DNA of 25,077 nt from an uncultured Anaerolineae bacterium (GTDB taxonomy: Bacteria > Chloroflexota > Anaerolineae > S140-20): positions 1-25,077 of the forward strand of contig CAZSJU010000012.1 of NCBI GenBank assembly GCA_964607235.1, given 5' to 3'. The position numbers were made by a program, and so were the translations under genes. This document shows positions 483-21,399 of this stretch, piece by piece. The notes below the pieces were generated by a model. The model saw nothing but the letters and a program-made list of their open reading frames with translations. It had not been told where the DNA came from and searched no databases. Numbering within the stretch: position 1 is the first letter of the stretch; each line of letters opens with the position of its first letter.

Positions 483-493
483 CGCCAACCTAC

Positions 494-4374: not shown

Positions 4375-4418
4375 GTGGCGCTACATTGAAATACTTTTGT
4401 ATACAAGGAGGTGGACGG

Positions 4419-4709: not shown

Positions 4710-4767
4710 GGGGGGAGGATGTTATTCGAACGGATCGTTTCTCCAGGCCTGGCCGGCTGGAGGATTA

Positions 4768-4803: not shown

Positions 4804-4809
4804 GGCGGT

Positions 4810-5225
4810 CAAAGGAATCCCATCAGTCAGGATGGCGCGGTAAAGGGGCAGGCGGGTGCGGCCTATCTCGGCCCAGCGCTCCGGATCAGTGGTATTGCGT
4901 AGCTCAAAGGCTCTGCCGTAAGCGTGACTGTCCTGCGTCGAAAATATGCCCGGCTTGACCAAGAGCTCTCTGAAAGCAGCTAGCACACCAGAGTGTTTGT
5001 TCCGTGTCAGATCTAGGGACAAAAGTAAAGCTGTGGCTGCATAAAAGAAAACGTAATAGACCCGATTGATAGCGACATCGTAAAGTCGCCGTCGAGACCG
5101 TATTGTGCGCTTTGTAATGCGTCTCGGGCACCGTTGATATAGGAAGCTACTGCTTCTTTATTGATGGGCTCTTGTTTTGCGTCCACGGTGTTAACAGTAT
5201 AGTAGTATATCTGGGTTTAAAAGGC
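4810..5225 (-). pseudogene. Low-GC segment with frame-disrupted minus-strand ORF remnants (possible decayed gene or foreign DNA)
   Basis: GC drops visibly relative to the flanks. Minus-strand translation gives ...VDAKQEPINKEAVASYINGARDALQSAQYGLDGDFTMSLSIGSITFSFMQPQLYFCP* without an ATG. Two other minus ORFs (4765-5022, 4904-5131) lie in different frames. No intact gene can be assembled. Confidence 0.25.
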
Positions 5226-5230
5226 AATAC

Positions 5231-6457: not shown

Positions 6458-6472
6458 GTCGGGAGAGGACGT

Positions 6473-9034
6473 ATGATCCCCGTCAAGTTGGAACTGGAGA
6501 ATTTCTTGTGCTACCGCCAGCCCGCGCCGCTGGATTTTAGCGGCATCCACGTGGCCTGCCTGGCCGGGGAGAATGGCGCCGGCAAGTCCAGCCTGTTGGA
6601 CGCGATGACCTGGGCCTTGTGGGGCAAAGCCCGCGCCCGCCGCGACGACGAGTTGATTTACTTGGGCCAGGACGAGATGCGGGTCGAGTTTACCTTTGAC
6701 CTGGAAGGTAACCGTTACCGCGTCTTGCGTCAGCGCCAGGCGACCAAGCGCGGGCGCAGCGTGCTGGACCTGCAGATCGCCGACGAGGACGGGCACTTTT
6801 GCGCCATCAGCGAGTCGACCATCCGCCAGACCCAGGTCAAGGTTGATACATTGTTGCGCCTGGATTATGACACCTTTGTCAACTCGGCCTTTTTGTTGCA
6901 GGGGCGGGCTGACGAGTTCACGATCAAGACGGCCGGCGAGCGCAAGCAGATCCTGGCGGACATCTTGGGGCTGGACCGCTGGTCGCGCTACGAGGCGCGG
7001 GCCAAGGCGTGCCTCAAAGAGACCGACGAGGCGGCCGCCGTCGTGGCGGCGCGCCTGGAAGAGATCGACCGCGAGTTGAGCCAGGAAGCGACGTATCGTG
7101 TCGACCTGGCCACGGCCCAGGCGGCGGCGTTACGTCTGTCCGACGCGATGCGCGAGGCTGAGGCCCGTTTGCGCGAGGTGCAGGCCGCGCGCCAGGACCT
7201 GACGCACAAGCGCCAGGGACATGAAGACCTGGCGCGGCGCCTGGCCCAGGGGGAAAGCGAGCTGGCGCGGGTGCGCGACGCGTTGGCCCAGGCTCAGGCG
7301 CGCATTGAGGCATACGAGACGATTCTGGCCCAGGCGCAAGAGATCGCGGCCGGCTATGGACGTTGGACCGCGGCCCGCACGGCGGACGCGGCGTTCAACG
7401 CCTTGCTGGCGGAGCAGGCCGCGTTGTTGGAGGGCCGGGCGGTGTTGGAGAAAAGGCTATCCGACGCGCGCTCCGAGTGGGTGGCCCGCAAGAGCGCCCT
7501 CGACCAGCAGGTGGCCGAACTGCGCCGTCGTGCTGCCGGCGCCGAAGCGGCGGGTGACCTGGCGGCGGCCCGGGAGGAACTGGCGACGCTGGCGGAGCGT
7601 GAGGTCGAGCGCGACCGTCTGCAGGCCCAACTGGCGACGCTGGGCCAAGAGCTGGGAGGGCGCCAGGCCGAAAGGGAAGCGTTAGAGGCCAAGGGCGTCG
7701 AGCTGAACGAGCGATTGGAAAAATTGGAGGGCATTGACACCCAGGCGGCGGCTCTGTGCCCCCTGTGTGGGCAGACGTTGAGCGAGATCCATCGCGCGGA
7801 CCTGGTCGCGCGTCTGGCGTCAGAGCGGGAGGCGATGCGCCAGGATTGGCAGGAAAACAAGACGCGCATCAAGGCCATCACTCAAGAAACCCAAGAGTTG
7901 CAACAAGCGCTGGACCAGGCCCTCAACGCGTTGCGGCGCTTGCCGGCGCTACAGCGACGTCAGGCCGAGCTGGCCCAGCGGGTGGACGATGCCCAGGCGG
8001 CGACCGCCGAACTGGAAGCGGTGCAGGCCGAGCGGGCGCGCGTGCAGGCCCGGTTGGAGGCGCAAGACTATGCGCCGCAGGTGCGCCGCGAGCTGTCGGC
8101 GCTGCAGGCCAAGCAGGACGCCTTGGGCTATGATGCTGCAGCCCATCGCGACGCCCAGCACGAACTGTCAGAGCTGGCGGCTTTTGAGACGCGCTATGCC
8201 GAGTTGGAGCAGGCACGGAAAGAGATCGACGCGGCGCGTGCGGCGGTCGAGGAGGTCTGCGAGCGGGAGAGCCGGTGGGCGTCCTCGCTGGCCGAGGATC
8301 ATGTCAAGCAGGCCGCGCTGGCGGGCGAAATCGAACAACTGGAAGCCCGGCTGGTCGACGCCGACCAGGTGGAGGCGGACGTAGAGACCTTGCGCCGGGA
8401 CGAGTCTCAGGCGCGGATGCGGCTGGGAGCGGCCCAACAGCGGCTCGATGCCTGCCAAGCTCTCAAGGTGCTGCGCCAGGAGCGCTTGCAAGAGCAAACC
8501 CGCCTGGCGGAAGAGCGGGTAATTTACGACGAGCTGCGCGTGGCGTTTGGCAAAAAGGGCGTGCCGGCCATGATCATCGAAGCAGTGCTGCCCGAGATCG
8601 AGGACAGCGCCAACGCACTGCTGAGCCGTATGACCAACGGCCGCATGCATGTACGTTTTGAGACCCAGCGCGAAAAAGTGACGGGCGGCGTCGCCGAGAC
8701 GTTGGACATCCAGATCAGCGACGAGTTGGGCACGCGCAACTATGAGTTGTACTCGGGCGGCGAGGCTTTTCGCATCAATTTTGCCATCCGCATCGCATTA
8801 TCGCAGTTGTTGGCGCGGCGGGCGGGCGCGCGCCTGCGCACCCTGGTGATCGATGAGGGGTTTGGGACGCAGGACGCCCAGGGACGCGAACGGCTGGTAC
8901 AGGCCATCAATGCCATCCAGTCCGACTTTGAGCGGATTTTGGTCATCACCCACATTGACGAGCTCAAGGACGCCTTTCCGGCCCGCATTCAGGTCACAAA
9001 GACCGTGACAGGCTCTCAGATGGAGATCATCTAG
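6473..9034 (+). CDS. sbcC: SbcC / Rad50-family SMC-like ATPase with zinc hook
   Basis: N-terminus LELENFLCYRQ...LAGENGAGKSSLLDAM (Walker A). Long Ala/Glu/Arg-rich coiled coil with central CPLCGQTL (CxxC hook). C-terminus LYSGGEAFRINFAIRIAL (signature) and TLVIDEGFGTQD (Walker B/D-loop). SD gggagagg 4 nt before ATG, 15 nt after sbcD stop. Confidence 0.9.
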   Translation: MIPVKLELENFLCYRQPAPLDFSGIHVACLAGENGAGKSSLLDAMTWALWGKARARRDDELIYLGQDEMRVEFTFDLEGNRYRVLRQRQATKRGRSVLDLQIADEDGHFCAISESTIRQTQVKVDTLLRLDYDTFVNSAFLLQGRADEFTIKTAGERKQILADILGLDRWSRYEARAKACLKETDEAAAVVAARLEEIDRELSQEATYRVDLATAQAAALRLSDAMREAEARLREVQAARQDLTHKRQGHEDLARRLAQGESELARVRDALAQAQARIEAYETILAQAQEIAAGYGRWTAARTADAAFNALLAEQAALLEGRAVLEKRLSDARSEWVARKSALDQQVAELRRRAAGAEAAGDLAAAREELATLAEREVERDRLQAQLATLGQELGGRQAEREALEAKGVELNERLEKLEGIDTQAAALCPLCGQTLSEIHRADLVARLASEREAMRQDWQENKTRIKAITQETQELQQALDQALNALRRLPALQRRQAELAQRVDDAQAATAELEAVQAERARVQARLEAQDYAPQVRRELSALQAKQDALGYDAAAHRDAQHELSELAAFETRYAELEQARKEIDAARAAVEEVCERESRWASSLAEDHVKQAALAGEIEQLEARLVDADQVEADVETLRRDESQARMRLGAAQQRLDACQALKVLRQERLQEQTRLAEERVIYDELRVAFGKKGVPAMIIEAVLPEIEDSANALLSRMTNGRMHVRFETQREKVTGGVAETLDIQISDELGTRNYELYSGGEAFRINFAIRIALSQLLARRAGARLRTLVIDEGFGTQDAQGRERLVQAINAIQSDFERILVITHIDELKDAFPARIQVTKTVTGSQMEII

Positions 9035-9100
9035 GCGGGGATGAAAAAGTCGCCTACGGCAGCGAGAATGAACGGATGCGGGTCTGCCGGACGTGATGGC

Positions 9101-9496
9101 TCAAGACAGGATTGGACTCGCGTTTGTGCCCAGCAACTTTAAAATGCGGTTCCGGAATTCACATGGTTCAAAGGGCTTGAAGGTATAGGAGACGATTGAT
9201 GGCTCGTGCCAGGGAAAACGGTTGGCGTTCCACCAGATCACGCTGAGCACCCACACCGGAGTGTCTTTTAACTGTGGGTCGTCCTGCATCTTGAGGAAAA
9301 GCTCTCGGCCGGTGATGTCGGGCAACATCAGATCGAGGACGACCAGGTCTGGGTCTAACTGGCGGGCAAGCGCCAAACCTTCGCCGCCGGTCGGCGCCAC
9401 GATCCAGTTAACGGGATCGTTCTCAAACAAAGCCTGGACCATCTCGGCGACGTCGTTGTCGTCTTCTATGTGTAAAACGGTTTTGTTTTGAAACAC
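9101..9496 (-). CDS. Stand-alone response regulator receiver domain protein (CheY-like)
   Basis: VLHIEDDNDVAEMVQALF...LVVLDLMLPDITGRELFLKMQ...PVWVLSV. Receiver-domain Asp pocket and phospho-acceptor D in VVLDLMLP. Apparent GTG start at 9496, preceded by the G-rich SD aggggggaca. Confidence 0.75.
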   Translation of the reverse strand: MFQNKTVLHIEDDNDVAEMVQALFENDPVNWIVAPTGGEGLALARQLDPDLVVLDLMLPDITGRELFLKMQDDPQLKDTPVWVLSVIWWNANRFPWHEPSIVSYTFKPFEPCEFRNRILKLLGTNASPILS

Positions 9497-9576
9497 TGTC
9501 CCCCCTAAAGCTCAGAATGCCCTCTATCTATGGCCTATGGCCGGCCGTTCTGATTGCTCATCACCCCCCAAGACTG

Positions 9577-9603
9577 AAACCCACGCAACGCAAGCGCGGG
9601 TTT
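9577..9603. other. Imperfect 10-bp hairpin in an AT-richer intergenic region
   Basis: aaacccacgc (9577-9586), loop aacgcaa, gcgcgggttt (9594-9603). One mismatch. T-rich only on the + side (tttcatgacgcttttg), where no + gene ends nearby. Confidence 0.3.
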
Positions 9604-9714
9604 CATGACGCTTTTGTACAACCAGCATACCCTAAACTTGTTAGTTTTTCGTCAGGGCTGCGTTAGAGTTGTATATGGTTACAGGATGAGCTTTTTGGCC
9701 GTGGACCATGAAAC

Positions 9715-10875
9715 TCATGGGGCCACTTGCTCAAAGCTATCCTGTTGCACCTGGAAAATAAAGAGCCGTTGCTGTTCCAGGTCTCCTTGGTTGTCATAGT
9801 TGATCGCGCCGATGAGCGAATCAAAGCTCAATTGGCGGATTGCCTCGGCGACCTTGGGCCCCTCCAGGCTGTTGGCTTTTTTGGCTCCCTCGGCCAACAC
9901 TTCCATCGCCGTATAGCCGTTGACGCTATAGGTGTCGGGGTTGCGGTATTCTACTTGCTGGTAGGCCTTGATCCACTCTGTGCCCGCGACAGCTTGGGGT
10001 TGGGGCGCGAACCCAATGACATACATCCCCTCGGCGGCATCGTCCGACGCGTCGATGGTCTCTGACAAGAAACAGCCATCAGATGCCAGGAAGGGGATCC
10101 CGTCCAGCCCGGCGTCGCGCAGGTCGGCCCGCAGATAGGGACATTCGACCTCATAGCCGGCGTAGAATATCGCGTCGGGGTTGGCTTGTTGCAGTGCCGC
10201 AATCTCGGTGTCGAATTGATCTTGCTCCACCTGGACCTGGCGGTTCAACACGACCTCGATCCCAGGGCCCAACGCTTGCAGCGCGTCGATAGTGCGCTGG
10301 CCCAGGTCGATGCCATAGCTGTCGTCATTGTACAGCACTGCCACCCGTTGCGCCCCGAACTGATTGACCAAATAGTCGGCCGCGACGCGGGCCTGGGCGG
10401 TGTTGTGGGCGTTGACGCGGAAAAAGTTCCGGTATCCGCTTTGGGTCAGCGCCATGTCGCTGGCGGTGGGCGTGACGACGACGATGGGCAGGTTCTGATA
10501 GATTTCCATACCCACCCAGGTCTGTCCGCTGTTCAAGTGGCCGATGACGCCCAACACTTTTTCGCCCCGCGTGATGGCGTCCGCGATCTCGGCCGCGACG
10601 GCAGCCGCAACCTCGTTATCGCTCTCGTCGTCTATGCCCCGCACCACGACCCGATAGCCCAGCAGGCCGCCCTCCTCCTCGTTGATTTCATCCGCCTTGA
10701 GGCGTGCGCCGCCGACGATCGTTTGCCCGCCGTTGGCTTGAAAGCCAGAGAGCGGCGTGGCGACGTAAACGATCACGTCGCCTTTGGTGGGTTCGTCTTG
10801 GCCATTGCCACACGCGAAAAGTCCGGTCAGTAAAGACAGGATCAGGATCATTAATACTAGCGCTTTAAGCTTCAT
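9715..10875 (-). CDS. ABC transporter substrate-binding lipoprotein, LivJ/LivK (branched-chain amino acid, PBP type I) family
   Basis: N-terminal signal peptide with lipobox-like LTGLFAC. Type-I periplasmic binding protein architecture (VVVRGIDDESD, GVIGHLNSG, VAVLYNDDSYG, IFYAGY). SD ggagag 6 nt upstream of ATG. Confidence 0.75.
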   Translation of the reverse strand: MKLKALVLMILILSLLTGLFACGNGQDEPTKGDVIVYVATPLSGFQANGGQTIVGGARLKADEINEEEGGLLGYRVVVRGIDDESDNEVAAAVAAEIADAITRGEKVLGVIGHLNSGQTWVGMEIYQNLPIVVVTPTASDMALTQSGYRNFFRVNAHNTAQARVAADYLVNQFGAQRVAVLYNDDSYGIDLGQRTIDALQALGPGIEVVLNRQVQVEQDQFDTEIAALQQANPDAIFYAGYEVECPYLRADLRDAGLDGIPFLASDGCFLSETIDASDDAAEGMYVIGFAPQPQAVAGTEWIKAYQQVEYRNPDTYSVNGYTAMEVLAEGAKKANSLEGPKVAEAIRQLSFDSLIGAINYDNQGDLEQQRLFIFQVQQDSFEQVAP

Positions 10876-10925
10876 ACTCGTCTCTCCGCCATTGACGGTC
10901 TGGTTTCTCCTTTGGTATGTGCTGT

Positions 10926-11750
10926 TTACGTGCTGGTGTCCGTTTCGTATACCTCGTCCATAGAATCAAGGACGTCCTGTAGCCCCAACACCTCTCCGGC
11001 GACCTCTTCGCGCAGCCGGTTGGCCCGACCGCTGTCCACATCCTTGGCGCCTACCAGCAACAGTTGGGAGTAAATCGTGCCCATCGCCGTCAGTGTATTC
11101 TCTAATTGTAGCTCGGCCCGCTGCATGCTGTTTTCTAGTTGGTCCAGATTTGACCATTGCAGTTCTTTGGCGCGCAGTGTCTGGCTGAGCTGCTCTCGAA
11201 CCCGGGGGTCGTCTTCGCTCTCCAAATCCTGTCGCAGCCGTTGCATACGCGCCGGCACCGTTTTCATATCCCGATGGATCAGGTCATCTTGCCCGTACTG
11301 GTCCAGGCGCCGAGCGATCTCGTGGATGCTGGCGATCCATTTGTCGATCTGGCGAGCGGTCTCTTTAAAGTGATCTTGTAGCATCCCGCGCCGTCGTCTG
11401 GCCAGTGCACCTTCTATGCGCTCGCGATACTCTAGCGCCCGCGCCAAATAGTTCTTGAGCCTTTGGTCATCGAGCGCATCCATATTGAACTCTTGATGTA
11501 ACATGTCCGCTACGACTCGGCGGCTGAATTCTGGATCGGTCAGGCTGGTGTAAATGATGGCGACTTCGGCCAGCGCGCCGCCGATGAGCCAAAACCACCA
11601 CTGCCACCCCGGAAAGGGCTTGGGTAAGAAAAAAGCCAGCAGGATGACCATAGAAATGGTGGCAGCGCTTTCCCAACGAAAGATCGCGTTGGTGAGCATC
11701 GCCCGCAAGGCCCGGCGTTCGAGATCAGTTTTGACGGATGACTTGGCCAT
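10926..11750 (-). CDS. Hypothetical membrane protein with C-terminal coiled coil (274 aa)
   Basis: Hydrophobic helices around residues 30-70 (ISMVILLAFFLPKPFPGWQWWFWLIGGALAEVAIIY), then long heptad-like charged segments (RLRQDLESEDDPRVREQLSQTLRAKELQWSNLDQLENSMQRAELQLEN). Start lies 18 nt after the upstream VWA gene stop. Confidence 0.6.
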   Translation of the reverse strand: MAKSSVKTDLERRALRAMLTNAIFRWESAATISMVILLAFFLPKPFPGWQWWFWLIGGALAEVAIIYTSLTDPEFSRRVVADMLHQEFNMDALDDQRLKNYLARALEYRERIEGALARRRRGMLQDHFKETARQIDKWIASIHEIARRLDQYGQDDLIHRDMKTVPARMQRLRQDLESEDDPRVREQLSQTLRAKELQWSNLDQLENSMQRAELQLENTLTAMGTIYSQLLLVGAKDVDSGRANRLREEVAGEVLGLQDVLDSMDEVYETDTST

Positions 11751-11768
11751 AGGGACGTTTTCCGTTGT

Positions 11769-13493
11769 CTAAAAGTAGGTGGATAGGATTTTGTACAGTT
11801 GGCGTATGGTCTCCAGTGTGCCCTCGTATACCTGTCCGTCCGTGGCCTCGGCCAAGACCCGCAAGGTTCCATAGTCGGCGTCCTTGCCATAGGCGACGGC
11901 AAAGACAATGACCGGCACGCCGCTCTCGTTGCCCTCTCGCATATAATCTTCCAGTTGCTTTAGCGAGACGTCGGAATAGTTCTCACGGCCGTCGGTCATG
12001 ACGACGATGGCATTGATGCGCTCCGTGTCGTTCAGCGCTTGTAGCCCCTGGTAGGCCTTGTACACCCCATCCAGCAAGGCCGTTTCGCCATTGGCCTCCA
12101 GCCCGTCAATGGCGCGCAGTACATCTTGCCGGTTGTTGGTTAGCTTGTCCAGCGGCACCAGCACGTCCACATAGGTATAGAATTCGATCACCCCGATAGA
12201 CTCTTCCGGGCCTTGGATTTGTTCCACAAAGATGCGCAAGGCCTCTTGGACGTTACTGATCTTGTCCCCTTGCATCGAGCCAGAGGTGTCGACGACCAGG
12301 ATGACGTTGGTGTGCCGTTTGATGTACCACCACACGTCGCGCACTACCTGGACGACGTTCCCGCCCGGGACTTGCAGAGCGGTCTGGGGCTGTGATGCGT
12401 CTACGCCGTTGTCCAGCGTCAGTGGCGAGCCAGGCGCATCAAGGGAGATCAGCGGGTCGGCCGGACGATAACCGGCCGCCAGCACGACTTGTTGGGCCTC
12501 TTGGGTGCGCATGTGGGAGATCAGTTGGGCGAACACCTGGCGCTGTGCGCCGCTCAGTTCGGGTGTCTCGAGCAGCACCAATGGGTGGTCTGCCCATAGA
12601 GACCCTTCGACGGGATAGACCGCGACCAGGTCGGCCCCTTGCTGGTTGGCCCAGACGACGAGTTGCTCCTGGCACACAAAGGCGTCCAGATAGTCTCGAC
12701 CTTCTTGGACCACACGCTGCACCGTCGGCCACTCGCCCTCGCCATAGTAGCGCACCGTGCGCTCGATACGTTCGACGTAATCGAGCGTGGCCGGCGCTTG
12801 CACGTCGGCCGCCGTGAGGCCCCAGGTTTTATCGGCGCCGGCATAGAACACGGCCAACGTGGCCAGTAATCCGCTGGCCGAAGCGGTGGAAGGATGACTC
12901 CATTTGAAATTGGGGTCACTCTGCGCCCGGTCCAGCAGGTCGTTCCATCCCAGCGCGCGCTCACCGTAGCCCATTTCCTGGGCGACGTCGCGCCACATTG
13001 CGATGACGAAGGGGGAAACGGCATAATGGACCGTCTGCCCGACGATAAAGGCCCGTTCATCCCCGATCTGTTCCGCCCATAGCGCGTCCAACTGGGGCAG
13101 CCACACTGAAGAATCGGGGGTGATGGCCTCAAGTTCGCCCGTGACTGCGGCGTCGAGCATGGCTTCGGGGTCCATCTCGACGAGCTCGATGTGCATGGGC
13201 AGCCCATCGGAAGTTTGATAATCTTGCGCGTTGAATTTTTCGACCAACGACTCGACCAGCGTCGCCTTTTCGGGCGAGTAGGCCAGGGTTAGCTCGGCGA
13301 CCGTTTTTTCCTCTTGCGTCTCTTGGTCGATGCGTTCGATGAGTGACGCGCTGATCGCCCAGCACGCGCCACAAATCGCCACCAGGGCGACGAGCCCGAC
13401 CAGCAACACTGCGACGATAGCCCCAGGGTTGCTGGGTTCTTTTTTGCGGCCGACCTTTTTATTGATACCTTGGCGTGCAGAACCTTTCGTCAT
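11769..13493 (-). CDS. Membrane-anchored substrate-binding-like domain fused to a C-terminal von Willebrand factor A (VWA) domain protein
   Basis: N-terminal basic tail plus one transmembrane helix (AIVAVLLVGLVALVAICGA). A central ~300-aa domain is paralogous to the upstream gene. C-terminal VWA with MIDAS motif VILVVDTSGSMQGDKI...ALLDGV...VVMTDGRENYS. Start moved to ATG 13493 (SD aggag 7 nt upstream). The ORF-track start at 13595 overlaps the upstream gene. Confidence 0.8.
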   Translation of the reverse strand: MTKGSARQGINKKVGRKKEPSNPGAIVAVLLVGLVALVAICGACWAISASLIERIDQETQEEKTVAELTLAYSPEKATLVESLVEKFNAQDYQTSDGLPMHIELVEMDPEAMLDAAVTGELEAITPDSSVWLPQLDALWAEQIGDERAFIVGQTVHYAVSPFVIAMWRDVAQEMGYGERALGWNDLLDRAQSDPNFKWSHPSTASASGLLATLAVFYAGADKTWGLTAADVQAPATLDYVERIERTVRYYGEGEWPTVQRVVQEGRDYLDAFVCQEQLVVWANQQGADLVAVYPVEGSLWADHPLVLLETPELSGAQRQVFAQLISHMRTQEAQQVVLAAGYRPADPLISLDAPGSPLTLDNGVDASQPQTALQVPGGNVVQVVRDVWWYIKRHTNVILVVDTSGSMQGDKISNVQEALRIFVEQIQGPEESIGVIEFYTYVDVLVPLDKLTNNRQDVLRAIDGLEANGETALLDGVYKAYQGLQALNDTERINAIVVMTDGRENYSDVSLKQLEDYMREGNESGVPVIVFAVAYGKDADYGTLRVLAEATDGQVYEGTLETIRQLYKILSTYF

Positions 13494-13503
13494 GGTATGG
13501 CTC

Positions 13504-14778
13504 CTAGCGCCGGGCGCTATAGCGGTCAAACCAGGCCAATAACGCCAGCAACACGTCCCGGTCAGGGGAGCGCATTGCGGTGGTGCGCTCGACAAAGGTC
13601 ATCGCCCCTTGTTCGCTCCAGCGCGTGAACAGGCTGTCCGGGCTGTCCACCGGCACTTCAGCGTGGGCCGGGCGCAACCCATAAGCCAGCGCCTGAGTTT
13701 GCACCTCTTTTGTCAGCAGATACTCTTGGAACTCGAGCGCGGCGTTTTTTTCCAGCGCCGTCGTCTCGGGCCCTATCCAGACGGTGAAAGGAAAGTCAAA
13801 CCAGGTGACATAGCTGGGGTAGCGAATGAGCAGCATCTCTGGCGAGCGGGTTTGGATGCCCGCCATGTTGACCAGGATGTCCGCCTCGAGCAACTGGGCC
13901 ACGTCTCCGGTCGTATAACCAAAGAGCGCCAGGTTCTCACCGGGCTGGCTGGCCGCCGAAAAGTCAGTGACAGACATCAGCGCCTCTTCCAGCCACGACA
14001 AAAATTCCGTGTTGGTGAGGTCGGCGACGTCGATGCGCGGCCGATCGTAATACTCACCAGCGGCCGCAATGATGGCCATCATGCCGCCCACGTTTTTGCG
14101 GGGGTGTGGCACCGCCAACTTGAAAAAGCCCCACGAGTTCAGCGTCCCGGGATCATCCAGGTTGGCTTTTTCCCCGATTTGTGGCCAGCCTCGCTCGGCC
14201 ATAGCGGCGTCGTGGATGGCATCCCAGCTCAGTTCATCATAGGCTTCTTCCAGCACCTCAGCGCGGCTGTTAAAGATTCCCCAGGCCAGGAGTGAGATGG
14301 CAATGGGGCGGGCGCGGTACTCGCCGTCGGTCAAAAAGACGTCACGCCCCAACTTTTCCTTATAAGTCGCGTTGACCAGTTCGACCAGATAGCGGCTGTC
14401 GGGAATCCAGACCGTGGGAAAATCCGCCAACTGTTCTTTTTCGGCGTCGGTCAGCGTCTCGCGGTCACGGTCGCCCAGCACAAAAAACTCTTCCCGGTCC
14501 CATTTGCTCAGAGCGGATAACCCGTCCATCGGCACGACGGTGATGTGGATGGGTTGGCCTTCTAGCGTGGGGCGCTGTGCGTTAAACTGGTCGGCGGCAG
14601 CGCGCACCCAGGGTTCTACCGGCAGTGCCGTGACGACTTGCACCTCAAGTTTATTCCCTGTCGCTTGTTGGGCGTCTTGCCCCGCATTGTCCCGCAACAT
14701 GGGGAGCAACGCGGCGACGCCAACGACGATGAGGGCTGCACCGACGATGAGCACGAAAACCCAACGTGTTTTGTTCAT
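13504..14778 (-). CDS. Membrane-anchored substrate-binding-like domain protein (paralog of the N-terminal region of the VWA protein)
   Basis: Transmembrane helix VFVLIVGAALIVVGVAALL. Shares FNAQ, W.P, P(I/F)(A/V)I(S/A)..W motifs with the downstream protein. Start ATG 14778 lies 9 nt after the pspA stop, with AAGGGAG immediately upstream (coupled). Confidence 0.7.
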   Translation of the reverse strand: MNKTRWVFVLIVGAALIVVGVAALLPMLRDNAGQDAQQATGNKLEVQVVTALPVEPWVRAAADQFNAQRPTLEGQPIHITVVPMDGLSALSKWDREEFFVLGDRDRETLTDAEKEQLADFPTVWIPDSRYLVELVNATYKEKLGRDVFLTDGEYRARPIAISLLAWGIFNSRAEVLEEAYDELSWDAIHDAAMAERGWPQIGEKANLDDPGTLNSWGFFKLAVPHPRKNVGGMMAIIAAAGEYYDRPRIDVADLTNTEFLSWLEEALMSVTDFSAASQPGENLALFGYTTGDVAQLLEADILVNMAGIQTRSPEMLLIRYPSYVTWFDFPFTVWIGPETTALEKNAALEFQEYLLTKEVQTQALAYGLRPAHAEVPVDSPDSLFTRWSEQGAMTFVERTTAMRSPDRDVLLALLAWFDRYSARR

Positions 14779-14787
14779 ATCTCCCTT

Positions 14788-15468
14788 TTACTCTGACATT
14801 CCTAGGCGGCGCTTGCGCTCTTCTAACTGGATGTCGATCTCGCTGCGCTCTAGCACCTCGTCCATCTGATCCTCGAGCCGGCTGGCGGCCATTTCGCTGC
14901 GTGCGGAGGCCTTGTCCAAGCGGGCGCGGATCGAATCTCCAATGCGAGCAATATCCGAGTCGCCCACGCCAACGACGTCATCCAGTGACTGGATGGCTTT
15001 GGCGGTGAGCTCTTTGGACTTGGCCAGCTCTAGCAGAGCCTGTAGCTCTTCGCGTTCTTGCTTGATAGTGGTCAACTTGGCTTCTAGTTTGAGCTTGGCG
15101 TTGATGAGCGATTGGTATTCCTTTTGTTGCTGTTGCCACTGGGCCTGGTAATCTTGGGCCAGGCGGCTGGTAGAGTTGAGCTTGCTCTGGGCTGCCATAG
15201 CCAGCTCATCTTTATCCTTCTGGAGCAAGATGTCAATATCGCGGTCGAGCTTGTCCGCCTTTTCTTGATACTCTTTGTACTTACGTTCCAAGGTCCGGAC
15301 GTTGCCGCCGACCGTCGCTGCTGCGTCTTCGAGGTCTTCCAGGTTATTCTCGGCTTGGCGGATATACTCGTCCAATACGGCTACAGAGTTCTTTTTGAGC
15401 GCTTCGTCCACCAACGAGTGCAGGTTTGCGCGGAGTAAAGTGCCGACTTTATCTAACAACGACGCCAT
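14788..15468 (-). CDS. pspA: PspA/IM30 (Vipp1/LiaH) family membrane-stress protein
   Basis: MASLLDKVGTLLRANLHSLVDEALKKNSVAVLDEYIRQAENNLEDLEDAAATV..., 226 aa. All-helical, heptad coiled-coil composition. The N-terminal region resembles the PspA amphipathic helix and NxxxLLDKAEDP region. Start at ATG 15468 with SD aggagg. The ORF-track start at 15540 has no SD. Confidence 0.6.
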   Translation of the reverse strand: MASLLDKVGTLLRANLHSLVDEALKKNSVAVLDEYIRQAENNLEDLEDAAATVGGNVRTLERKYKEYQEKADKLDRDIDILLQKDKDELAMAAQSKLNSTSRLAQDYQAQWQQQQKEYQSLINAKLKLEAKLTTIKQEREELQALLELAKSKELTAKAIQSLDDVVGVGDSDIARIGDSIRARLDKASARSEMAASRLEDQMDEVLERSEIDIQLEERKRRLGMSE

Positions 15469-15632
15469 AGGTGAGCCTCCTTTAGTTAACAGTTGCCCTG
15501 GTACATCTTTATATCTGCGTGTGGGTGGCAGGCATACCAAGGCTAAAATGAGTCATGCTTTGAAAGATATAGTAGCATAGTTTAATATTTTGCGCCAGAC
15601 AACGCCCTGACGCTCAACTGACCGACGAAATC

Positions 15633-16748
15633 TTATTTTTCCACGCGGGGCAGCGTCATCGTAAAGGTAGTGCCCTGATCTAGCTGGCTCTCGACTTGAA
15701 TCTGCCCACCGTGCAGTTCGACGATGCCTTTGACGATGGACAACCCGGCGCCAATGCCTCGTTGTTCCAAGAGTTCGCGGTTAATTTGGTGCAGGCGCTT
15801 AAAGAGATGGGGCATATCTTGGGCCGCGATGCCGATGCCCTCGTCTTGAACGGTCAGATAAATCCATTTTTCGTCAGCCGTGGCCCGCACGACGACGCGT
15901 CCGCCTTTTTCCTTGGAAAATTTAATAGCGTTATCTAGCAGCCGTATCAAAGCATCTTTGATATACTCAACTTGTAACGACGTGCCGGGTAAAAAAGCGG
16001 GAATGTCCATCTCTAGTTGAACGTGATGCGCCTGGGCTTGGGCCCGTTGTTGATCGATCACGTCCGCGATTAACTGGCCCAGCTCGGTAAAATATTCGCG
16101 CTTCCAGCGAAATGTGTCGAGCACTTCACCGGTCTCGAGCATTACCAGGAAGATAAAGTCGTCCACCAATTGTCGCAGGCGGTCGCTGCCCTTTTTCATA
16201 CGTTGCAAAAAGTCGCCCAGTTCTTCTACACTCAGTTCGTCTGGGCCCTCTTGCAGGATCAAGTCCAGATAACCGTGGACGTAGGTCAAAGGCGTGCGGA
16301 ATTCGTGGCTGAGGGTGTTGAGGATGTTGTGTTTTAGCTTGGCCATCTCGGCTTCGGTGACGGCCTTGAGTGCCGCGGTGCGTTCGAGTTTAGCGCTCAC
16401 CGCCACCAACAAATCCTCCGGCTCGAAGGGTTTGGTCAAATAGTCGTCAGCGCCCAATTGCTTTCCCAGTCGGACATCTATGCGCTGATCTTTGGCTGTG
16501 AGAAAGATAAAGGGAATGCCGAACCATTTTGGGTTGGCGCGTACTGCCGAAAAGAACTGATACCCGTCCATGCGCGGCATCATAATGTCCGAAACGATGA
16601 GCGCTGGAGAGTTTCGTTTCAGCAGGTCTAACGCTTCTTGTCCATCTAGAGCGGAAATCACTTGGTAATCCGCCATTTCCAATATATCCCGAATGCCATC
16701 CAGCATGATGGTGTTATCTTCGACTACCAGGACGGTAACTTTTGACAT
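15633..16748 (-). CDS. Hybrid response-regulator receiver / histidine kinase (REC-HisKA-HATPase_c)
   Basis: N-terminal receiver (VLVVEDN...IVSDIMMPRMDG...LTAKD). H-box LSHEFRTPLTYVHGYLDL. C-terminal HATPase (LIRLLDNAIKFS, DEGIGIA, GIGAGLSIVKGIV). 12 nt after the upstream kinase stop. Confidence 0.85.
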   Translation of the reverse strand: MSKVTVLVVEDNTIMLDGIRDILEMADYQVISALDGQEALDLLKRNSPALIVSDIMMPRMDGYQFFSAVRANPKWFGIPFIFLTAKDQRIDVRLGKQLGADDYLTKPFEPEDLLVAVSAKLERTAALKAVTEAEMAKLKHNILNTLSHEFRTPLTYVHGYLDLILQEGPDELSVEELGDFLQRMKKGSDRLRQLVDDFIFLVMLETGEVLDTFRWKREYFTELGQLIADVIDQQRAQAQAHHVQLEMDIPAFLPGTSLQVEYIKDALIRLLDNAIKFSKEKGGRVVVRATADEKWIYLTVQDEGIGIAAQDMPHLFKRLHQINRELLEQRGIGAGLSIVKGIVELHGGQIQVESQLDQGTTFTMTLPRVEK

Positions 16749-16760: not shown

Positions 16761-19700
16761 CTAGTCAAGGTTTTGATCGAGCCCGGATTGTGCTTGGCGT
16801 TCTGGTGGAATGGCGGCCGGCAAGCCAACGGTGAACAGGCTACCGACGCCCACCTGGCTATCAACGGTGATCCACCCCGCGTGTTTTTCCAAGATATCTT
16901 GAACAATGGACAGTCCGAGTCCCGTGCCGGCGCTCATGTGGCGGTGGTTAGGGCCACGGAAAAAGCGATCCCAGATGTGCGGCAGGTCGCCGGGCGCAAT
17001 ACCCACGCCCGTATCTTGGACGGTAAAGATGATCCATTGCCCGCGTTGGTCTGTGCGCTGACTGAGATTGAGCGTGACTTGACCGCCTGGCTCGGTATAG
17101 TTGATGGCGTTGGCGCTCAGGTTCATGACCATTTGGACCATTTGATCTCGGTCAGCCTCTAACCACAGGTCGCCGCGTTCCGCCCGGCATGCGTTGGTCA
17201 GCGTGATGTGCTTGGCGGCGGCTTGGGGCGCCAGTATGGTCATCACGTGAGAAACCACATCGTATAGGTTTAACCGTGCTTTGGCCATCTTGCTCGCACC
17301 GGCTTCTAGCCGCGAGAGATCCAGCAAGTCTTGGATCAGATTTTCCAGGCGATTGACCTCTTGTACCAATACTTGCTGATAGGCTTTGCGCTTTTCTGCC
17401 CGGCCTTTTTCCAGCAACGACAGATAGAGTTTCAGGTTTGACAGCGGCGTGCGTAGTTCGTGGGATACGGTCGAGACAAATTGCGATTTCAGATGGTTGA
17501 TTTTTTCAAAGTGTGTGACGTCGTGCAGCACGATGACGGTGCCCATTTCTATGCCCTCTTGGATAATTTTTGCCGCCCGAGCTTGGAGCGTTTGCCCTTT
17601 CAAGGTGATGGTAGAACCGGGCACCGCGCTGTCAGGCTGTTGGGTGACCGTGCGTATGAAATCGTGCAACCGTTTGGATTGCTGGGGAATGTCGAGCAAG
17701 GCCTCGGCTGCGGGATTGGTCAACAGGATGTTTGATTGGTTATCGACGACAAAGACACCGTCCGCGACGCTGCGCAAGATGGCCTCGGTTTGCTCTTTTT
17801 CGCGGCGGATTTCGGACGTGCGCGTTTCGACTTGGGCTTGCAAGGAGGACGCGTACTGGGTCAGCGCTTGGTACAGTTGCGCGTTTTCGTAAGCGATGGC
17901 CGCGATGCCGCCCAGCGTTTGCATAAAGTCAAGGTCGTCGCTCGTCAAATAGTCCCGTTCTGACGCGGTGACGACTTCCAAAACCCCGATGTCTTGGGCT
18001 TGCCCGCGCAGCGGTGCCGCTGCGCGGTAGCCGCGTTTGCCAATGACCGTGGGGCCTACCCATTGTTGGGGGTTCTCGCGTTGCCCCCAGAGCACGCCCT
18101 CGTCCGAATGTAACACCTGCGTGACCTGCTCGGCCGCGGCCGCAATGGCGTCACTGTCTTGAACAGAAAGAGTGCCCAGGGCTAGATGGGGATAGAGATC
18201 TTTTTCATCGTTGTGCAGCCACAACATCGCGCCGCCGGCTTGCAGTTCGCTCACCGTAATCTCTAGTATATGTTGTAATAAAGTGCGCGAGGCCAGTACG
18301 GAGGAGAGGGAACGTGCCGCTTCGTAAAGACGCCGCAGCCGTCGTTCTCGTTCGCGCGTGTGACGATAGAGCACTGTGTTTTGAACCGCCACGCCGATTT
18401 GCTGGCCGATGGCCCTGAGCAAGTTGATTTCGTGGGGTTGTAGCTCGCGCGGACGATGCCCTAGCACGGTGAGCAGGCCCACGGTTTGATCTTGGGCGGC
18501 CAGGGGAATGGCGGCATAGCACCGATAGTCTGACAGGAATGGGATGGGCGACCGGGGATCCCGGTCAAAATCGCCAATGATGGTGGATTTCCCGCTGGAC
18601 ACCGTCTCTTGGTAAAGCCCTTTGTCCACGCTCATCTCTAGTATGCCGCGCACGACGTCCGAGGTCAGGTGTTTCTGGCTGACCAGGTTGAGCGTTTGCT
18701 CGCCCTCTTGGTACAGGTGGAACGCTCCGGCGTCTAGCTGCATCTCGTTCAACAAGACAGATAGCGCCTCATCCAGCAGCGTTTCCAGGTCAAAAGAATG
18801 GCTGACGATGGCCGACAGCTTGTTGAGGACCGACAGCTCCCAGTTGCGCTGCCGGGTTTCTTCCCAGAGGCTCACCTTTTCCAGCGCTGTGGCGACCTGG
18901 GTAGCGATGCCACGGCATAATCGCTGGTGACCGGCGTCAAAAGCATTGGGCTGGCGGCTTTGAACCGTCATCACCCCCACCAGTTGATCGCCCGCGATTA
19001 ACGGGAATCCCATCCAGCATCGGACGGGGCTTCCGACCAGGACGCCGCGCGCCGGCAGGCGCTCTTTTTGTGTGTCGTTGATGATCAATTCTTGACGGTT
19101 ATGCGCCACCCAAATGGTTAAACCCACGTGATCTTGGAGGGACAACCGTTGGGGGGAAAGGGTTTGCCCCCCATCGCGAATGAGTGCATAGTTGAGCGCA
19201 TCGTTGGCCGCTTGATACAGCCCAATAGCAAAGGTATCCGCCCCGGTGGCCCGGTGGATGGCCTGATAAGTCACGTCTAGTACGTCAGAGACGTTGAGCT
19301 GGGCGCCCAAAGCCAGGGCAACCTGGTACAGCGTAGACATGTCTTGGTTACGCCGTTTCAGGTCTTGATACAGTTGCGCCCTTTCGACTGCCGCCGCTGC
19401 CTGGTCGGCCAACAGGCTCAGCACGTGTTGCTCGGCCTGGTCAAAGCGATGGACGCTCAAATAGGTGAGCGTAAAGACACCCAGCACCTGCCCGCTGCGG
19501 ATCAGGGGATAGCCGGCGATGGCCTTGACGTGCCACGCTCTGGCTTCTGGCGTCTGGTAGAGGGGGTGCCGCGCGGCGTCATTGATCAACAGCGGCGCTG
19601 CCTTTTGGGCGACTTGGGCGACCAGCCCATCGGGGCGTGGCTGGTTCACCGCTGGCGTGGTGCCGCCGCTCCGTTCGCGCGCCGCAGCAAAGTGAAACCC

Positions 19701-20420
19701 TTTTGGGTCTACCAGGTAGATGTGACAGTTGTGCGCGGCGGTGATTTCTAGCGCGGCCTCTGTGATCGCTTCCAGCAGCACGTTGATTTCCAGGGCGGCG
19801 CTGAGCTTAAAGCTGACGTCTTGCAAGGTGGCCAGTTCTTTGACGCGCCGTTGGGCGTCTTGATAGAGACGGGCGTGCTCGAGCGCGGAGGAGATCTGTG
19901 ACACAAAAGCGCGCGTCGTAGGCACGCTTTGCTCGCCCAGGTCACCGTGCACCAAGAGCAACCCTTCCACCTGGTCGGCGATGAAAAAAGGCAGTAGGGT
20001 GGCTTGGTGCAGGTTAAAATGTTCGGTCACCCACGCGATCAACGCCGCGTCGTCAGTGCCCAACATCTGGCTGATGGCTTGTGTGGCGTCATCCAGGTAG
20101 ACGGTCTCACCTTGCAACACCCGCTCCCAAAAGTTCAGGCGCGTGACGGGCACGCACAGGTCGCTGGGATCCGATCCGATCTTGGCCGCGAATTGATCTT
20201 GGTTCGCTTGGGCATAAGTCGTGTGCAGAGGACACAGGGCTTGCCTGTCCTTGCTGAGATACCACATGCTGGATAGCAGGCCCAACTCTAGCAGGACGTG
20301 TGCCACGGCCCGGTAGATGGCGTCCGGGTCCAGTTGATTATGGGCTGCCAGGGCAGCCTTGTTCAGTGCTTCCCACACCTGTTCTTGTGTGGTGGGAGCG
20401 TCTCGATTTGGGGTTTTCAT
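16761..20420 (-). CDS. Large multi-GAF / PAS sensor histidine kinase (1219 aa)
   Basis: Several GAF-like modules (repeating L..A...D...IY, G.P.....G motifs). A PAS-like segment (ILRSVADGVFVVDNQSNILLTNPAAE). HisKA SHELRTPLSNLKLY. HATPase N/G1/G2 boxes (NLSANAINYT, QDTGVGIAPGDL, GTGLGLSIV). Confidence 0.85.
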   Translation of the reverse strand: MKTPNRDAPTTQEQVWEALNKAALAAHNQLDPDAIYRAVAHVLLELGLLSSMWYLSKDRQALCPLHTTYAQANQDQFAAKIGSDPSDLCVPVTRLNFWERVLQGETVYLDDATQAISQMLGTDDAALIAWVTEHFNLHQATLLPFFIADQVEGLLLVHGDLGEQSVPTTRAFVSQISSALEHARLYQDAQRRVKELATLQDVSFKLSAALEINVLLEAITEAALEITAAHNCHIYLVDPKGFHFAAARERSGGTTPAVNQPRPDGLVAQVAQKAAPLLINDAARHPLYQTPEARAWHVKAIAGYPLIRSGQVLGVFTLTYLSVHRFDQAEQHVLSLLADQAAAAVERAQLYQDLKRRNQDMSTLYQVALALGAQLNVSDVLDVTYQAIHRATGADTFAIGLYQAANDALNYALIRDGGQTLSPQRLSLQDHVGLTIWVAHNRQELIINDTQKERLPARGVLVGSPVRCWMGFPLIAGDQLVGVMTVQSRQPNAFDAGHQRLCRGIATQVATALEKVSLWEETRQRNWELSVLNKLSAIVSHSFDLETLLDEALSVLLNEMQLDAGAFHLYQEGEQTLNLVSQKHLTSDVVRGILEMSVDKGLYQETVSSGKSTIIGDFDRDPRSPIPFLSDYRCYAAIPLAAQDQTVGLLTVLGHRPRELQPHEINLLRAIGQQIGVAVQNTVLYRHTRERERRLRRLYEAARSLSSVLASRTLLQHILEITVSELQAGGAMLWLHNDEKDLYPHLALGTLSVQDSDAIAAAAEQVTQVLHSDEGVLWGQRENPQQWVGPTVIGKRGYRAAAPLRGQAQDIGVLEVVTASERDYLTSDDLDFMQTLGGIAAIAYENAQLYQALTQYASSLQAQVETRTSEIRREKEQTEAILRSVADGVFVVDNQSNILLTNPAAEALLDIPQQSKRLHDFIRTVTQQPDSAVPGSTITLKGQTLQARAAKIIQEGIEMGTVIVLHDVTHFEKINHLKSQFVSTVSHELRTPLSNLKLYLSLLEKGRAEKRKAYQQVLVQEVNRLENLIQDLLDLSRLEAGASKMAKARLNLYDVVSHVMTILAPQAAAKHITLTNACRAERGDLWLEADRDQMVQMVMNLSANAINYTEPGGQVTLNLSQRTDQRGQWIIFTVQDTGVGIAPGDLPHIWDRFFRGPNHRHMSAGTGLGLSIVQDILEKHAGWITVDSQVGVGSLFTVGLPAAIPPERQAQSGLDQNLD

Positions 20421-21355: not shown

Positions 21356-21399
21356 AGGGGCATAATCTCTTTTATATCCAAAAGATCAAGGAGCGGGTG

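Follow-up and report, generated by a model that had tools for sequence, protein, structure and literature searches.

A conserved five-gene pspA neighbourhood of Chloroflexota with exported binding-protein-like proteins and an XpaC-like membrane protein

Gene layout and conservation of the module

The pspA gene of Chloroflexota is almost always accompanied by the same four genes, which encode a membrane-anchored binding-protein-like protein (SBP1), a fusion of such a protein with a VWA domain (SBP-VWA), an XpaC-like protein with two transmembrane (TM) helices and a LivJ-like lipoprotein. The best explanation of this association is a conserved five-gene envelope module of the phylum. The stretch of DNA analysed, here termed the window, comprises 25,077 nt of contig CAZSJU010000012.1 (GCA_964607235.1) from an uncultured Anaerolineae bacterium, and all coordinates are window positions.

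All genes of the module are carried on the minus strand, in the order pspA (14788-15468), SBP1 (13504-14778), SBP-VWA (11769-13493), the XpaC-like gene (10926-11750) and the LivJ-like gene (9715-10875). The original prediction was of a four-gene operon with spacings of 9, 10 and 18 nt (pspA/SBP1, SBP1/SBP-VWA and SBP-VWA/XpaC-like, respectively), and these coordinates and gaps hold. The four genes are as it described; however, the unit has five, as the LivJ-like gene, which starts 50 nt after the XpaC-like gene, is conserved with them. The start of pspA was placed at ATG 15468, which has an AAGGAGG ribosome-binding site upstream, and the mechanical open reading frame limit at TTG 15540 was rejected. 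Likewise, the mechanical start of SBP-VWA at TTG 13595 would overlap SBP1, and ATG 13493 gives the 10-nt gap.

Conservation was assessed in SBP-module loci of 80 species-level Chloroflexota genomes, with anchor identities of 49-73%. All 80 loci come from this one phylum (Anaerolineae and related orders), and each gene was counted over the loci with enough sequence. In 54 of 55 loci pspA precedes the SBP genes and shares their strand, SBP1 keeps its order and strand in 69 of 71, the XpaC-like gene does so in 59 of 61, and the LivJ-like gene is found downstream on the same strand in 41 of 45. The neighbourhood check thus bears out the original prediction, as almost all of the related genomes examined retain this gene order. 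This arrangement is far beyond chance, and its order and strand are held down to 49% anchor-protein identity while the flanking genes vary. The hybrid kinase gene that precedes pspA in the window occupies that position in only 10 of 50 loci; therefore, it is the five genes that are under selection, rather than the region as a whole.

Further genes are inserted at a subset of loci. About 10 loci carry NfeD and Band_7 genes that separate the XpaC-like gene from the LivJ-like gene, the Band_7 insert being of the flotillin type in 4 loci, and in 8 loci a small PLDc_N membrane protein is encoded between pspA and SBP1. Some loci have an inserted gene for a TPR membrane protein. The window also contains a Band_7 gene, 6.6 kb from pspA.

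The 164-nt region upstream of pspA (15469-15632, minus strand) is the only long gap on the 5' side and is likely a promoter or regulatory region, where a consensus promoter scan stayed at background level and was uninformative. Directly upstream lies a receiver-histidine kinase hybrid (15633-16748, minus strand; Response_reg, HisKA and HATPase_c by Pfam), a candidate regulator in this lineage only, as a STAND NTPase-Trans_reg_C regulator occupies the upstream position instead in 36 of the 80 loci. It is preceded by a large histidine kinase (16761-20420, minus strand) with four GAF domains, PAS, HisKA and HATPase_c, which lies outside the conserved core. The two kinases co-occur in a subset of loci (e.g. 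L005, L008 and L019), and the large kinase is a possible phosphorelay partner of the hybrid.

The encoded proteins

The pspA product (226 amino acids, no TM segment) matches PF04012 (PspA_IM30) with an E value of 3.6e-18 and a score of 66.4 bits, the Pfam gathering cut-off being 33.9; residues 4-216 align to profile positions 2-208 of 220. It is accordingly classified by HMM in the PspA/IM30 (bacterial ESCRT-III) family, as originally predicted, and is expected to be cytoplasmic.

SBP-VWA (574 amino acids) consists of a basic N-terminal tail of charge +6 that is predicted to be cytoplasmic, one TM helix, and an exported SBP_bac_11-type domain (E 9.4e-10, 39.1 bits against a cut-off of 25) followed by a VWA domain (E 6e-18). 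Fusions of this kind are annotated by NCBI as 'substrate-binding and VWA domain-containing protein'. The MIDAS motif named in the original prediction, DTSGS, comprises residues 402-406 (D402, S404 and S406) and is completed by T471 and D501; all five residues are invariant across 45 homologs, and DxSGS is retained in the actinobacterial and Thiodictyon homologs. The metal-dependent binding site of the VWA domain is thus complete. In the AF2 model (overall pLDDT 69) the VWA domain is modelled at about 90 and the SBP domain is patchy. Foldseek matched the VWA part to VWA domains, the best being those of adhesion or receptor proteins; BatB (3ibs) was matched as well. The moderate-quality model of the SBP part matched sulfate-binding (1sbp, 6ddn and 5um2) and ferric-binding (3wae and 4elq) proteins, with E values of about 1e-10 for 1sbp and 6ddn. 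Together with the Pfam match, this places the SBP part in the SBP_bac_11 family with a predicted class-II binding-protein fold; the ligand class suggested by the domain model is a weak inference. The SBP domain has an invariant loop rich in Ser and Gly, WSHPSTxSASG, whose pLDDT stays under 50; a helix of residues 206-219 begins inside it in this low-confidence model.

SBP1 (424 amino acids) has an N-terminal signal-anchor TM helix and a binding-protein-like ectodomain with only a sub-threshold Pfam match (SBP_bac_8, E 1.3e-3). It aligns collinearly with SBP-VWA over 339 columns in BLASTP (E 5e-7, 23% identity), and reciprocal phmmer matches between the two occur in many loci. These comparisons support SBP1 as a paralog of the SBP part of SBP-VWA, in agreement with the original description of two TM-anchored, substrate-binding-like paralogs of which one is VWA-fused. 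The SBP1 loop is divergent (HPRKNVGG) and has lost the Ser residues of the SBP-VWA loop. The LivJ-like protein (386 amino acids) is a type-I binding-protein lipoprotein with the lipobox LFAC and a Peripla_BP_6 match of E 2.7e-52.

Three binding-protein-like products are therefore located at the external side of the membrane, two through TM anchors and one as a lipoprotein. No ABC component is encoded in the window, and ABC genes were found in 7 of the 80 loci without a fixed position, by queries suited to ABC ATPases and not to LivH/M-type permeases. Within the same detection range, LivHMGF transporter genes do not adjoin the LivJ-like gene in the window or the 80 loci. In two loci an ABC ATPase lies between pspA and SBP1.

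The XpaC-like protein (274 amino acids) starts with a TM hairpin (about residues 28-46 and 52-70), after which comes an all-helical domain. Hydropathy and the all-helical AF2 model (pLDDT 73) show helices at 26-41 and 52-71 and then five long helices. The original prediction of a membrane coiled-coil protein stands as regards a helical membrane protein, for which the better description is a two-TM XpaC-like protein whose helical domain lies in the cytoplasm. The window protein itself has no Pfam match, and none to PF10112 (XpaC / Halogen_Hydrol) at E <= 1. However, PF10112 is matched by 4 of 20 family members (best E 1.2e-7), and among 8 homologs 64-70% identical to the window protein three exceed the gathering score of 29.8 (30.6, 31.4 and 32.4 bits) and five score 25-28 bits. 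In the homologs the match extends over the hairpin and the helices that come first after it (profile positions 5-119 of 191), and the window protein has the XpaC architecture of an N-terminal hairpin and cytoplasmic helical domain. Through these close homologs with borderline scores it may be regarded as a divergent XpaC-like protein.

Fusion proteins join the helical domain to Ser/Thr kinases, to a BTAD regulator or to pentapeptide repeats. In these fusions it always follows 2, 4 or 6 TM helices and shares the membrane side with the kinase domains; because of this even TM count and the side of the kinases, we infer that it lies in the cytoplasm. The repeated fusion to kinases and a transcription activator domain suggests a signalling role. 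On the short contigs that carry them, the variants that contain a kinase or 4 TM helices are accompanied by neither PspA nor SBP genes.

The SBP-VWA and XpaC-like pair in Actinomycetota

In nine of nine actinobacterial contexts SBP-VWA is directly followed by a gene for a two-TM helical protein of 226-276 amino acids. Profile alignment of this protein with the window XpaC-like protein by hhalign yielded a probability of 95.5% and an E value of 1.6e-8 over 236 collinear columns, a score that the helical nature of both proteins may inflate. On this comparison the actinobacterial proteins are remote homologs of the XpaC-like protein, and SBP-VWA with its XpaC-like partner is an older two-gene pair. 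PspA adjoins the pair in only one of the nine contexts and is absent from the other eight; therefore, PspA would not be needed for the basic function of the pair. In the single exception (L107) the order is PspA, AAA+ ATPase, SBP-VWA and XpaC-like protein, and this PspA has no pairwise similarity to that of the window; we take this locus to have recruited an unrelated PspA and an AAA+ ATPase independently.

These results support and extend the original suggestion of an undescribed envelope module. No description of the five-gene module was found in the main PSP survey or the literature searched, as far as these sources were covered. At the evolutionary core stands the SBP-VWA and XpaC-like pair and not PspA.

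Relation to known systems and possible function

The PspFABC system of Proteobacteria, LiaIH-LiaFSR of Firmicutes and ClgR-PspAMN of Actinobacteria resemble the module in combining a PspA effector, small membrane proteins thought to anchor or regulate PspA and an adjacent regulator gene, and in their presumed protection of the membrane under envelope stress. Their partners differ from those of the module, which has three exported binding-protein-like proteins (one VWA-fused) and an XpaC-like two-TM protein. PspB, PspC, LiaI/LiaF (Toastrack), PspM/N and a PspF-type regulator were not among the neighbours classified by Pfam in the window and three related loci. The text and one supplementary file of the main survey of PSP contexts make no mention of VWA, SBP_bac, XpaC or Peripla_BP, consistent with the original view that such partners are not classical.

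YqiJ/YuaF membrane proteins are presumably NfeD-like. The PSP survey names operons with Band-7/flotillin and YqiJ/YuaF membrane proteins as PspA partners (e.g. B. subtilis ydjFGHI/L; PMC11237479, PMC8581546). The NfeD and Band_7 inserts recall these operons, but such genes are optional in the Chloroflexota module, whose constant partners are SBP, VWA, XpaC-like and LivJ-like. Operons of PspA/Snf7, an AAA+ ATPase, an ABC transporter and a PBPb-OmpA solute-binding protein have also been noted (PMC11237479). These set a precedent for PspA operons that include a solute-binding-type protein outside the cytoplasm and share with L107 the combination of PspA and an AAA+ ATPase; they differ in having an ABC transporter and PBPb/OmpA, whereas the module has SBP_bac_11-VWA and Peripla_BP_6 proteins without an ABC transporter.

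The XpaC-TelA pair of Firmicutes, of which B. subtilis xpaC-yaaN is presumably an instance, likewise joins a PF10112-like two-TM protein to a soluble all-helical stress protein acting at the membrane. In the module the soluble partner is PspA, the window protein lacks a PF10112 match of its own, and TelA (PF05816) is absent from the window and annotated related loci, PspA occupying the neighbourhood instead. In E. faecium, XpaC with TelA affects daptomycin binding and phospholipid microdomains (PMC6811118); the exported SBP-VWA, which is the constant partner across phyla here, is not named as a partner in that work. The Bat proteins of the Bacteroides aerotolerance operon include TM-anchored VWA proteins with a MIDAS (BatA/BatB), and the TPR membrane protein of some module loci recalls BatC. 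The module VWA differs in being fused to an SBP domain, MoxR AAA+ ATPase and DUF58 genes are absent from the window and annotated Chloroflexota loci, and to our knowledge PspA and XpaC-like proteins are not part of Bat operons. Against the PADLOC anti-phage models, PspA gave only weak matches, of the coiled-coil type, to JetC and LmuB, and the other four proteins gave none.

The probable role of the module is to couple conditions at the cell surface to intracellular PspA. Our best reading, which we favour tentatively, is that an exported SBP/VWA complex signals through the XpaC-like protein to PspA. SBP1, SBP-VWA and the LivJ-like protein would assemble into a surface complex whose SBP pocket, of the sulfate/ferric type, and MIDAS site bind an anionic ligand or some component of the envelope. 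Through its TM anchor, SBP-VWA would touch the TM hairpin of the XpaC-like protein, whose cytoplasmic domain would recruit or release PspA at the inner face, where PspA may polymerise and seal or remodel the stressed membrane. The XpaC-like protein would thereby be the counterpart of PspB/C, LiaI or PspM, and PspA would stand where TelA adjoins XpaC in Firmicutes. Expression is probably under the upstream regulator, here a histidine-kinase relay and in most relatives a STAND-wHTH protein. The inserted NfeD and Band_7 genes, known PspA companions, count in support of envelope surveillance.

The same proteins could instead form a structural tether without a signal, in which SBP-VWA, SBP1 and the LivJ-like protein use the MIDAS to fasten the cytoplasmic membrane to the wall, the S-layer or a filament sheath, the XpaC-like protein anchors them inside, and PspA and flotillin/NfeD stabilise the attachment sites. 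Adhesion is a classic task of VWA domains whose MIDAS is intact, and the adhesion/receptor structural matches, the missing ABC transporter, the inserted TPR and flotillin/NfeD scaffold proteins and the PspA-free pair in 8 of 9 actinobacterial contexts all suit a tether. We nevertheless consider it unlikely, as the repeated fusions of the helical domain to kinases and a transcription activator domain point to signalling, and a dedicated regulator gene immediately precedes the module in most loci, which suggests that the module is induced and not expressed constitutively.

A role in oxyanion or metal stress is quite improbable. In this reading the SBP_bac_11-type domains would bind a specific oxyanion or metal of the sulfate/thiosulfate/molybdate/ferric class, and the module would protect against toxic anions as attributed to the TelA/XpaC 'toxic anion resistance' genes while PspA preserves the proton motive force. 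The SBP_bac_11 match, the sulfate- and ferric-binding folds, the invariant loop with its modelled helix and the XpaC relationship of the fourth protein would fit such a role. However, the loop is modelled with low confidence, the paralog SBP1 lacks its Ser residues, and TelA, TerC and TerD genes were not seen in the Pfam-annotated neighbourhoods. The tellurite link of TelA/XpaC is only a name based on phenotype. The E. faecium XpaC work concerns membrane lipids (PMC6811118).

Ordinary nutrient uptake through ABC transporters encoded elsewhere, with pspA adjacent by inherited synteny, is very hard to credit: uptake is the usual task of the SBP and Peripla_BP_6 families, all 80 loci are from Chloroflexota and two have the ABC ATPase noted above, but the five genes stay linked down to 49% identity while their flanks shuffle, ABC genes are missing from 73 of the 80 loci, a VWA-fused and membrane-anchored SBP domain is unusual for uptake, membrane-scaffold genes are inserted within the module, and in a second phylum the pair has acquired an unrelated PspA.

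Chloroflexota have atypical envelopes and abound in wastewater reactors as well as in soils and sediments, and we know of no envelope stress system described for them. The module is a concrete, nearly universal candidate for such a system, with partners that face outside. PspA, IM30 and Vipp1 are bacterial ESCRT-III proteins whose targeting to damaged membrane is known in few models (PspBC, LiaI and PspM). The module joins XpaC-like proteins, implicated in enterococcal daptomycin tolerance, with membrane-anchored SBP-VWA fusions and transporter-less orphan binding proteins. A broader and somewhat doubtful reading takes SBP-VWA together with the XpaC-like protein as a device for transmembrane signalling that has so far gone unrecognised and is widespread across Chloroflexota and Actinomycetota. 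Ligand and metal binding by the exported ectodomain would be passed to a cytoplasmic helical output domain that can recruit PspA or, in proteins of other architecture, is wired directly to Ser/Thr kinases and transcription activators. If true, this would provide the first mechanistic role for the XpaC family and a new class of PspA membrane adaptor.

Gene content and layout of the module

The pspA module lies on the minus strand and comprises five genes. The original prediction had recognized the first four of these as an operon, namely pspA (14788–15468), SBP1 (13504–14778), SBP-VWA (11769–13493) and the gene of an XpaC-like protein (10926–11750), and its positions and intervening gaps of 9, 10 and 18 nt are correct. 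It had not included a fifth, LivJ-like gene (9715–10875) located 50 nt after the fourth. The pspA start was placed at the ATG preceded by AAGGAGG, as a longer mechanical open reading frame beginning with TTG at 15540 was unsupported; the ATG chosen for SBP-VWA leaves the 10-nt gap. The flanking spacers measure 164 nt upstream of pspA and 218 nt downstream of the LivJ-like gene. A promoter and terminator consensus scan yielded counts at the level of shuffled sequence and was left unused, and an Rfam search of the whole window returned no RNA family match. Convergent to the module on the plus strand is an archaeal-type double-strand-break repair cluster (550–9034) encoding NurA (550–1746), a 307-aa open reading frame with no family given, HerA/DUF87 (2557–4320), an Mre11-like Metallophos protein (5231–6457) and Rad50/SbcC with a zinc hook (6473–9034). 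The ~900 nt between 4320 and 5231 contain no open reading frame of 120 aa or longer, and the GC content there falls to ~0.57.

The product of the first gene, predicted to be PspA-like, matches the Pfam family PspA_IM30 (E 3.6e-18, 66.4 bits against a cut-off of 33.9), and topology analysis assigns it no TM segment. SBP-VWA combines SBP_bac_11 (E 9.4e-10) and VWA (E 6e-18) Pfam domains, and the LivJ-like protein matches Peripla_BP_6 (E 2.7e-52) and carries the lipobox LFAC. The sole Pfam match of SBP1, to SBP_bac_8, falls below threshold. SBP1 and the SBP portion of SBP-VWA nevertheless form a collinear alignment of 339 columns (BLASTP E 5e-7, 23% identity), and the two proteins match each other in many related loci too; thus they are paralogs, as had been proposed. 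SBP1 has a signal-anchor helix at its N-terminus, and the first 23 residues of SBP-VWA form a strongly basic tail (net charge +6), followed by a single TM helix and the acidic start of the ectodomain. The MIDAS residues D402, S404, S406, T471 and D501 show no variation among 45 homologs.

The AlphaFold model of SBP-VWA has an overall pLDDT of 69, with a confident VWA domain (~90) and a patchy SBP domain. Foldseek comparison with the PDB matched the former to VWA domains and the SBP part to sulfate-binding (1sbp, 6ddn, 5um2) and ferric-binding (3wae, 4elq) proteins with E values of ~1e-9 to 1e-10, consistent with the Pfam family SBP_bac_11. The SBP-VWA profile searched against PDB sequences retrieved VWA domains only, with no match for the SBP part. 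The loop HPSTSASG is invariant in SBP-VWA, and residues ~224–232 of SBP1 read HPRKNVGG in the same spot. The presumed ligand site of SBP1 may have been lost or altered.

Conservation and optional inserts in Chloroflexota

SBP-VWA has many homologs, and the ones with a source name are labelled Anaerolineae or Anaerolineales; three divergent homologs on long contigs have the same neighbors. With each species represented by a single genome, a scan located signature peptides of the SBP-VWA family in 329 genomes. The best 80 loci, with SBP-VWA identities of 49–73%, served as the comparison set and all belong to Chloroflexota (Anaerolineae, Thermoflexales, Ardenticatenales and Caldilineae). Their open reading frames were searched with the window proteins, and a locus was counted only if the sequence on the relevant side was sufficient. 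The same order and strand are kept by SBP1 in 69 of 71 loci, by pspA in 54 of 55, by the XpaC-like gene in 59 of 61 and by the LivJ-like gene in 41 of 45, contrary to the case of a gene order kept in no other genome that would have refuted the original prediction. The receiver–kinase hybrid found ahead of pspA in the window recurs in only 10 of 50 loci, and a STAND-NTPase regulator with a Trans_reg_C domain takes its position in 36 of the 80, at a distance of 1 kb or less in 27 of these. Thus the five genes stay together while their surroundings vary, a pattern that argues for selection on the five-gene unit rather than inherited synteny. The STAND regulator (L005–L084) is ~450 aa long, ends in a Trans_reg_C winged helix and shares the strand of pspA; the window instead carries a GAF-PAS kinase together with the hybrid.

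Where the module has long gaps, the same kinds of genes recur as inserts. In ~10 loci the XpaC-like and LivJ-like genes are separated by NfeD and Band_7 genes (Band_7 being of flotillin type in 4); in at least 7, a TPR/multi-TM protein is encoded after SBP-VWA and before the XpaC-like gene; and 8 have the gene of a small PLDc_N membrane protein inserted after pspA and ahead of SBP1. The association of PspA with Band-7/flotillin proteins and YqiJ/YuaF membrane proteins is recognized (PMC11237479), so the Band-7/flotillin insertion places the module within the theme of membrane dynamics. The window itself contains, at 21397–23312 on the plus strand and ~6.6 kb from pspA, a Band_7/SPFH protein gene (22098–23312, 404 aa) preceded by a 199-aa open reading frame with no Pfam match. 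Since NfeD and Band_7 occur within the module in related loci, this pair may be a displaced counterpart of those inserts.

ABC ATPase or permease genes were found in only 7 of the 80 loci and have no fixed position, and the three binding-protein-like genes are therefore regarded as orphans. In two Ardenticatenales loci (L033 and L041) pspA and SBP1 are separated by an ABC ATPase gene, at ~4754–5841, the sole cases among the 80 of an ABC component within the module.

The XpaC-like protein and its pairing with SBP-VWA

The fourth protein had been described as a coiled-coil membrane protein. Its helical and membrane-bound character stands, and the PF10112 (Halogen_Hydrol/XpaC) matches of its homologs suggest that this protein, which has a TM hairpin, is XpaC-like. 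The window protein itself has no match in Pfam or NCBIfam, and its own assignment is borderline. PF10112 is matched by 4 of 20 family members (best E 1.2e-7), and 3 of 8 homologs that are 64–70% identical to the window protein exceed the Pfam gathering score; in all 8 the matched region covers the first helices as well as the TM hairpin. AlphaFold predicts an all-helical structure for the window protein (pLDDT 73, pTM 0.60), and a fold search of this model against the PDB gave generic helical bundles alone, none with E below 0.1.

At E ≤ 1e-3, an exhaustive profile search with the family yielded 844 representative clusters. Of 10 proteins examined, 4 have Ser/Thr protein kinase domains fused to the C-terminal helical domain; other fusion partners are a BTAD transcription activator domain and pentapeptide repeats with a 2TM domain, and some proteins carry N-termini with 4 or 6 TM helices. 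In all cases read, an even number of TM helices precedes the helical domain, which places it on the kinase side of the membrane. It is thus predicted to be cytoplasmic and to serve in signalling or as an adaptor close to the membrane, and it looks like a member of a signalling domain family that lacks a name. The fusion proteins, all outside the window, are P0303, P0357, P0370, P0388, P0262 and P0356; their kinases are Hanks-type Ser/Thr kinases, one of which also has a TCAD9 domain. The BTAD regulator P0262 shares no sequence similarity with the regulators encoded ahead of pspA in most loci, and its fusion therefore backs only a generic signalling role. Across 15 metagenome loci, a set with many short contigs, the 4-TM and kinase-fused variants had no PspA or SBP neighbors. 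One such locus (L096, 4031–6450) contains two adjoining tandem paralogs of the 4-TM variant, with neither PspA nor SBP genes nearby.

The SBP-VWA architecture also occurs, at 23–30% identity, in Miltoncostaea, Streptomyces, Thiodictyon, Stanieria and Nonomuraea, as found by protein search on annotated plasmids and chromids. Stanieria has an SPFH gene near SBP-VWA. In Thiodictyon SBP-VWA adjoins an SBP1-like paralog; the stretch 380–10972 of the gammaproteobacterial plasmid pTs417 (L087) encodes these two and then a 224-aa protein with a hydrophobic N-terminus, a putative signal peptide. The locus also carries pstB, pstS and a CHAD-domain gene, which hint at a phosphate or polyphosphate context.

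In Miltoncostaea and Streptomyces, SBP-VWA is directly followed by a 264–271-aa protein whose TM segments are N-terminal and whose remainder is helical, and in all 7 further Thermoleophilia-type contexts its immediate neighbor is 226–276 aa long, in otherwise unrelated surroundings. The XpaC-like family profile was not significant against single actinobacterial neighbor sequences. An alignment of six neighbors compared with the family gave 236 collinear columns including the TM hairpin (hhalign probability 95.5%, E 1.6e-8). Profile scores can be inflated when proteins are helical. Because the neighbors in both phyla match by this profile–profile comparison, the evolutionary core is the two-gene pair of SBP-VWA and the XpaC-like protein, common to two phyla. 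PspA adjoins the pair in 1 of 9 actinobacterial contexts, too few for a rate. This metagenome contig of actinobacterial type (L107, 4047–8429) encodes PspA (PF04012 E 6e-20), an AAA+ ATPase (AAA and AAA_lid_6), SBP-VWA and a 226-aa XpaC-like protein. In pairwise comparison this PspA is not similar to that of the window (BLASTP E 13), and PspA has therefore joined the pair at least twice, which is independent evidence for a functional link.

Proposed mechanism and relation to known Psp systems

Composition, topology, the intact MIDAS, the orphan binding proteins, the cytoplasmic XpaC-like helical domain and the tight, recurrent linkage to PspA are established by evidence that is comparative throughout. 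The favored reading is a signalling route from a surface complex through the XpaC-like protein to PspA. The three exported proteins would assemble at the surface and bind, as a complex, either an envelope component or a candidate ligand that is anionic or a metal. The state of this complex would be relayed by way of the SBP-VWA TM anchor and then the XpaC-like TM hairpin. The cytoplasmic domain of the XpaC-like protein would then recruit or release PspA, and PspA would polymerize on the inner face and protect the membrane. Two rival readings are a structural tether from membrane to wall and an oxyanion or metal stress module, in keeping with the sulfate- and ferric-binding folds matched by the SBP part. 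Plain uptake proteins kept adjacent by inherited synteny are poorly supported, as the variable surroundings of the five genes argue against such synteny.

In the proposed signalling route the XpaC-like protein parallels the anchor or regulator roles of PspB/C, LiaI and PspM, and its module with pspA parallels the XpaC–TelA pairing of Firmicutes, where the effect of XpaC on daptomycin binding and phospholipid microdomains requires intact TelA (PMC6811118). VWA, SBP_bac, XpaC and Peripla_BP partners are absent from the main text and one supplementary file of a survey of PSP systems (PMC11237479), in line with the earlier claim that VWA and SBP-like proteins are not classical Psp partners. The nearest case in that survey comprises PspA, an AAA+ ATPase, an ABC transporter and a PBPb-OmpA binding protein (PMC11237479). 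A literature search on PspA with VWA, SBP-VWA fusions and Anaerolineae PspA systems found nothing relevant, and a known defence system was rejected since no module protein belongs to one. As the survey and the literature searched lack this combination and no defence system matches, the module is, as judged from gene content, a putative system of PSP type whose conserved set of partners is new.
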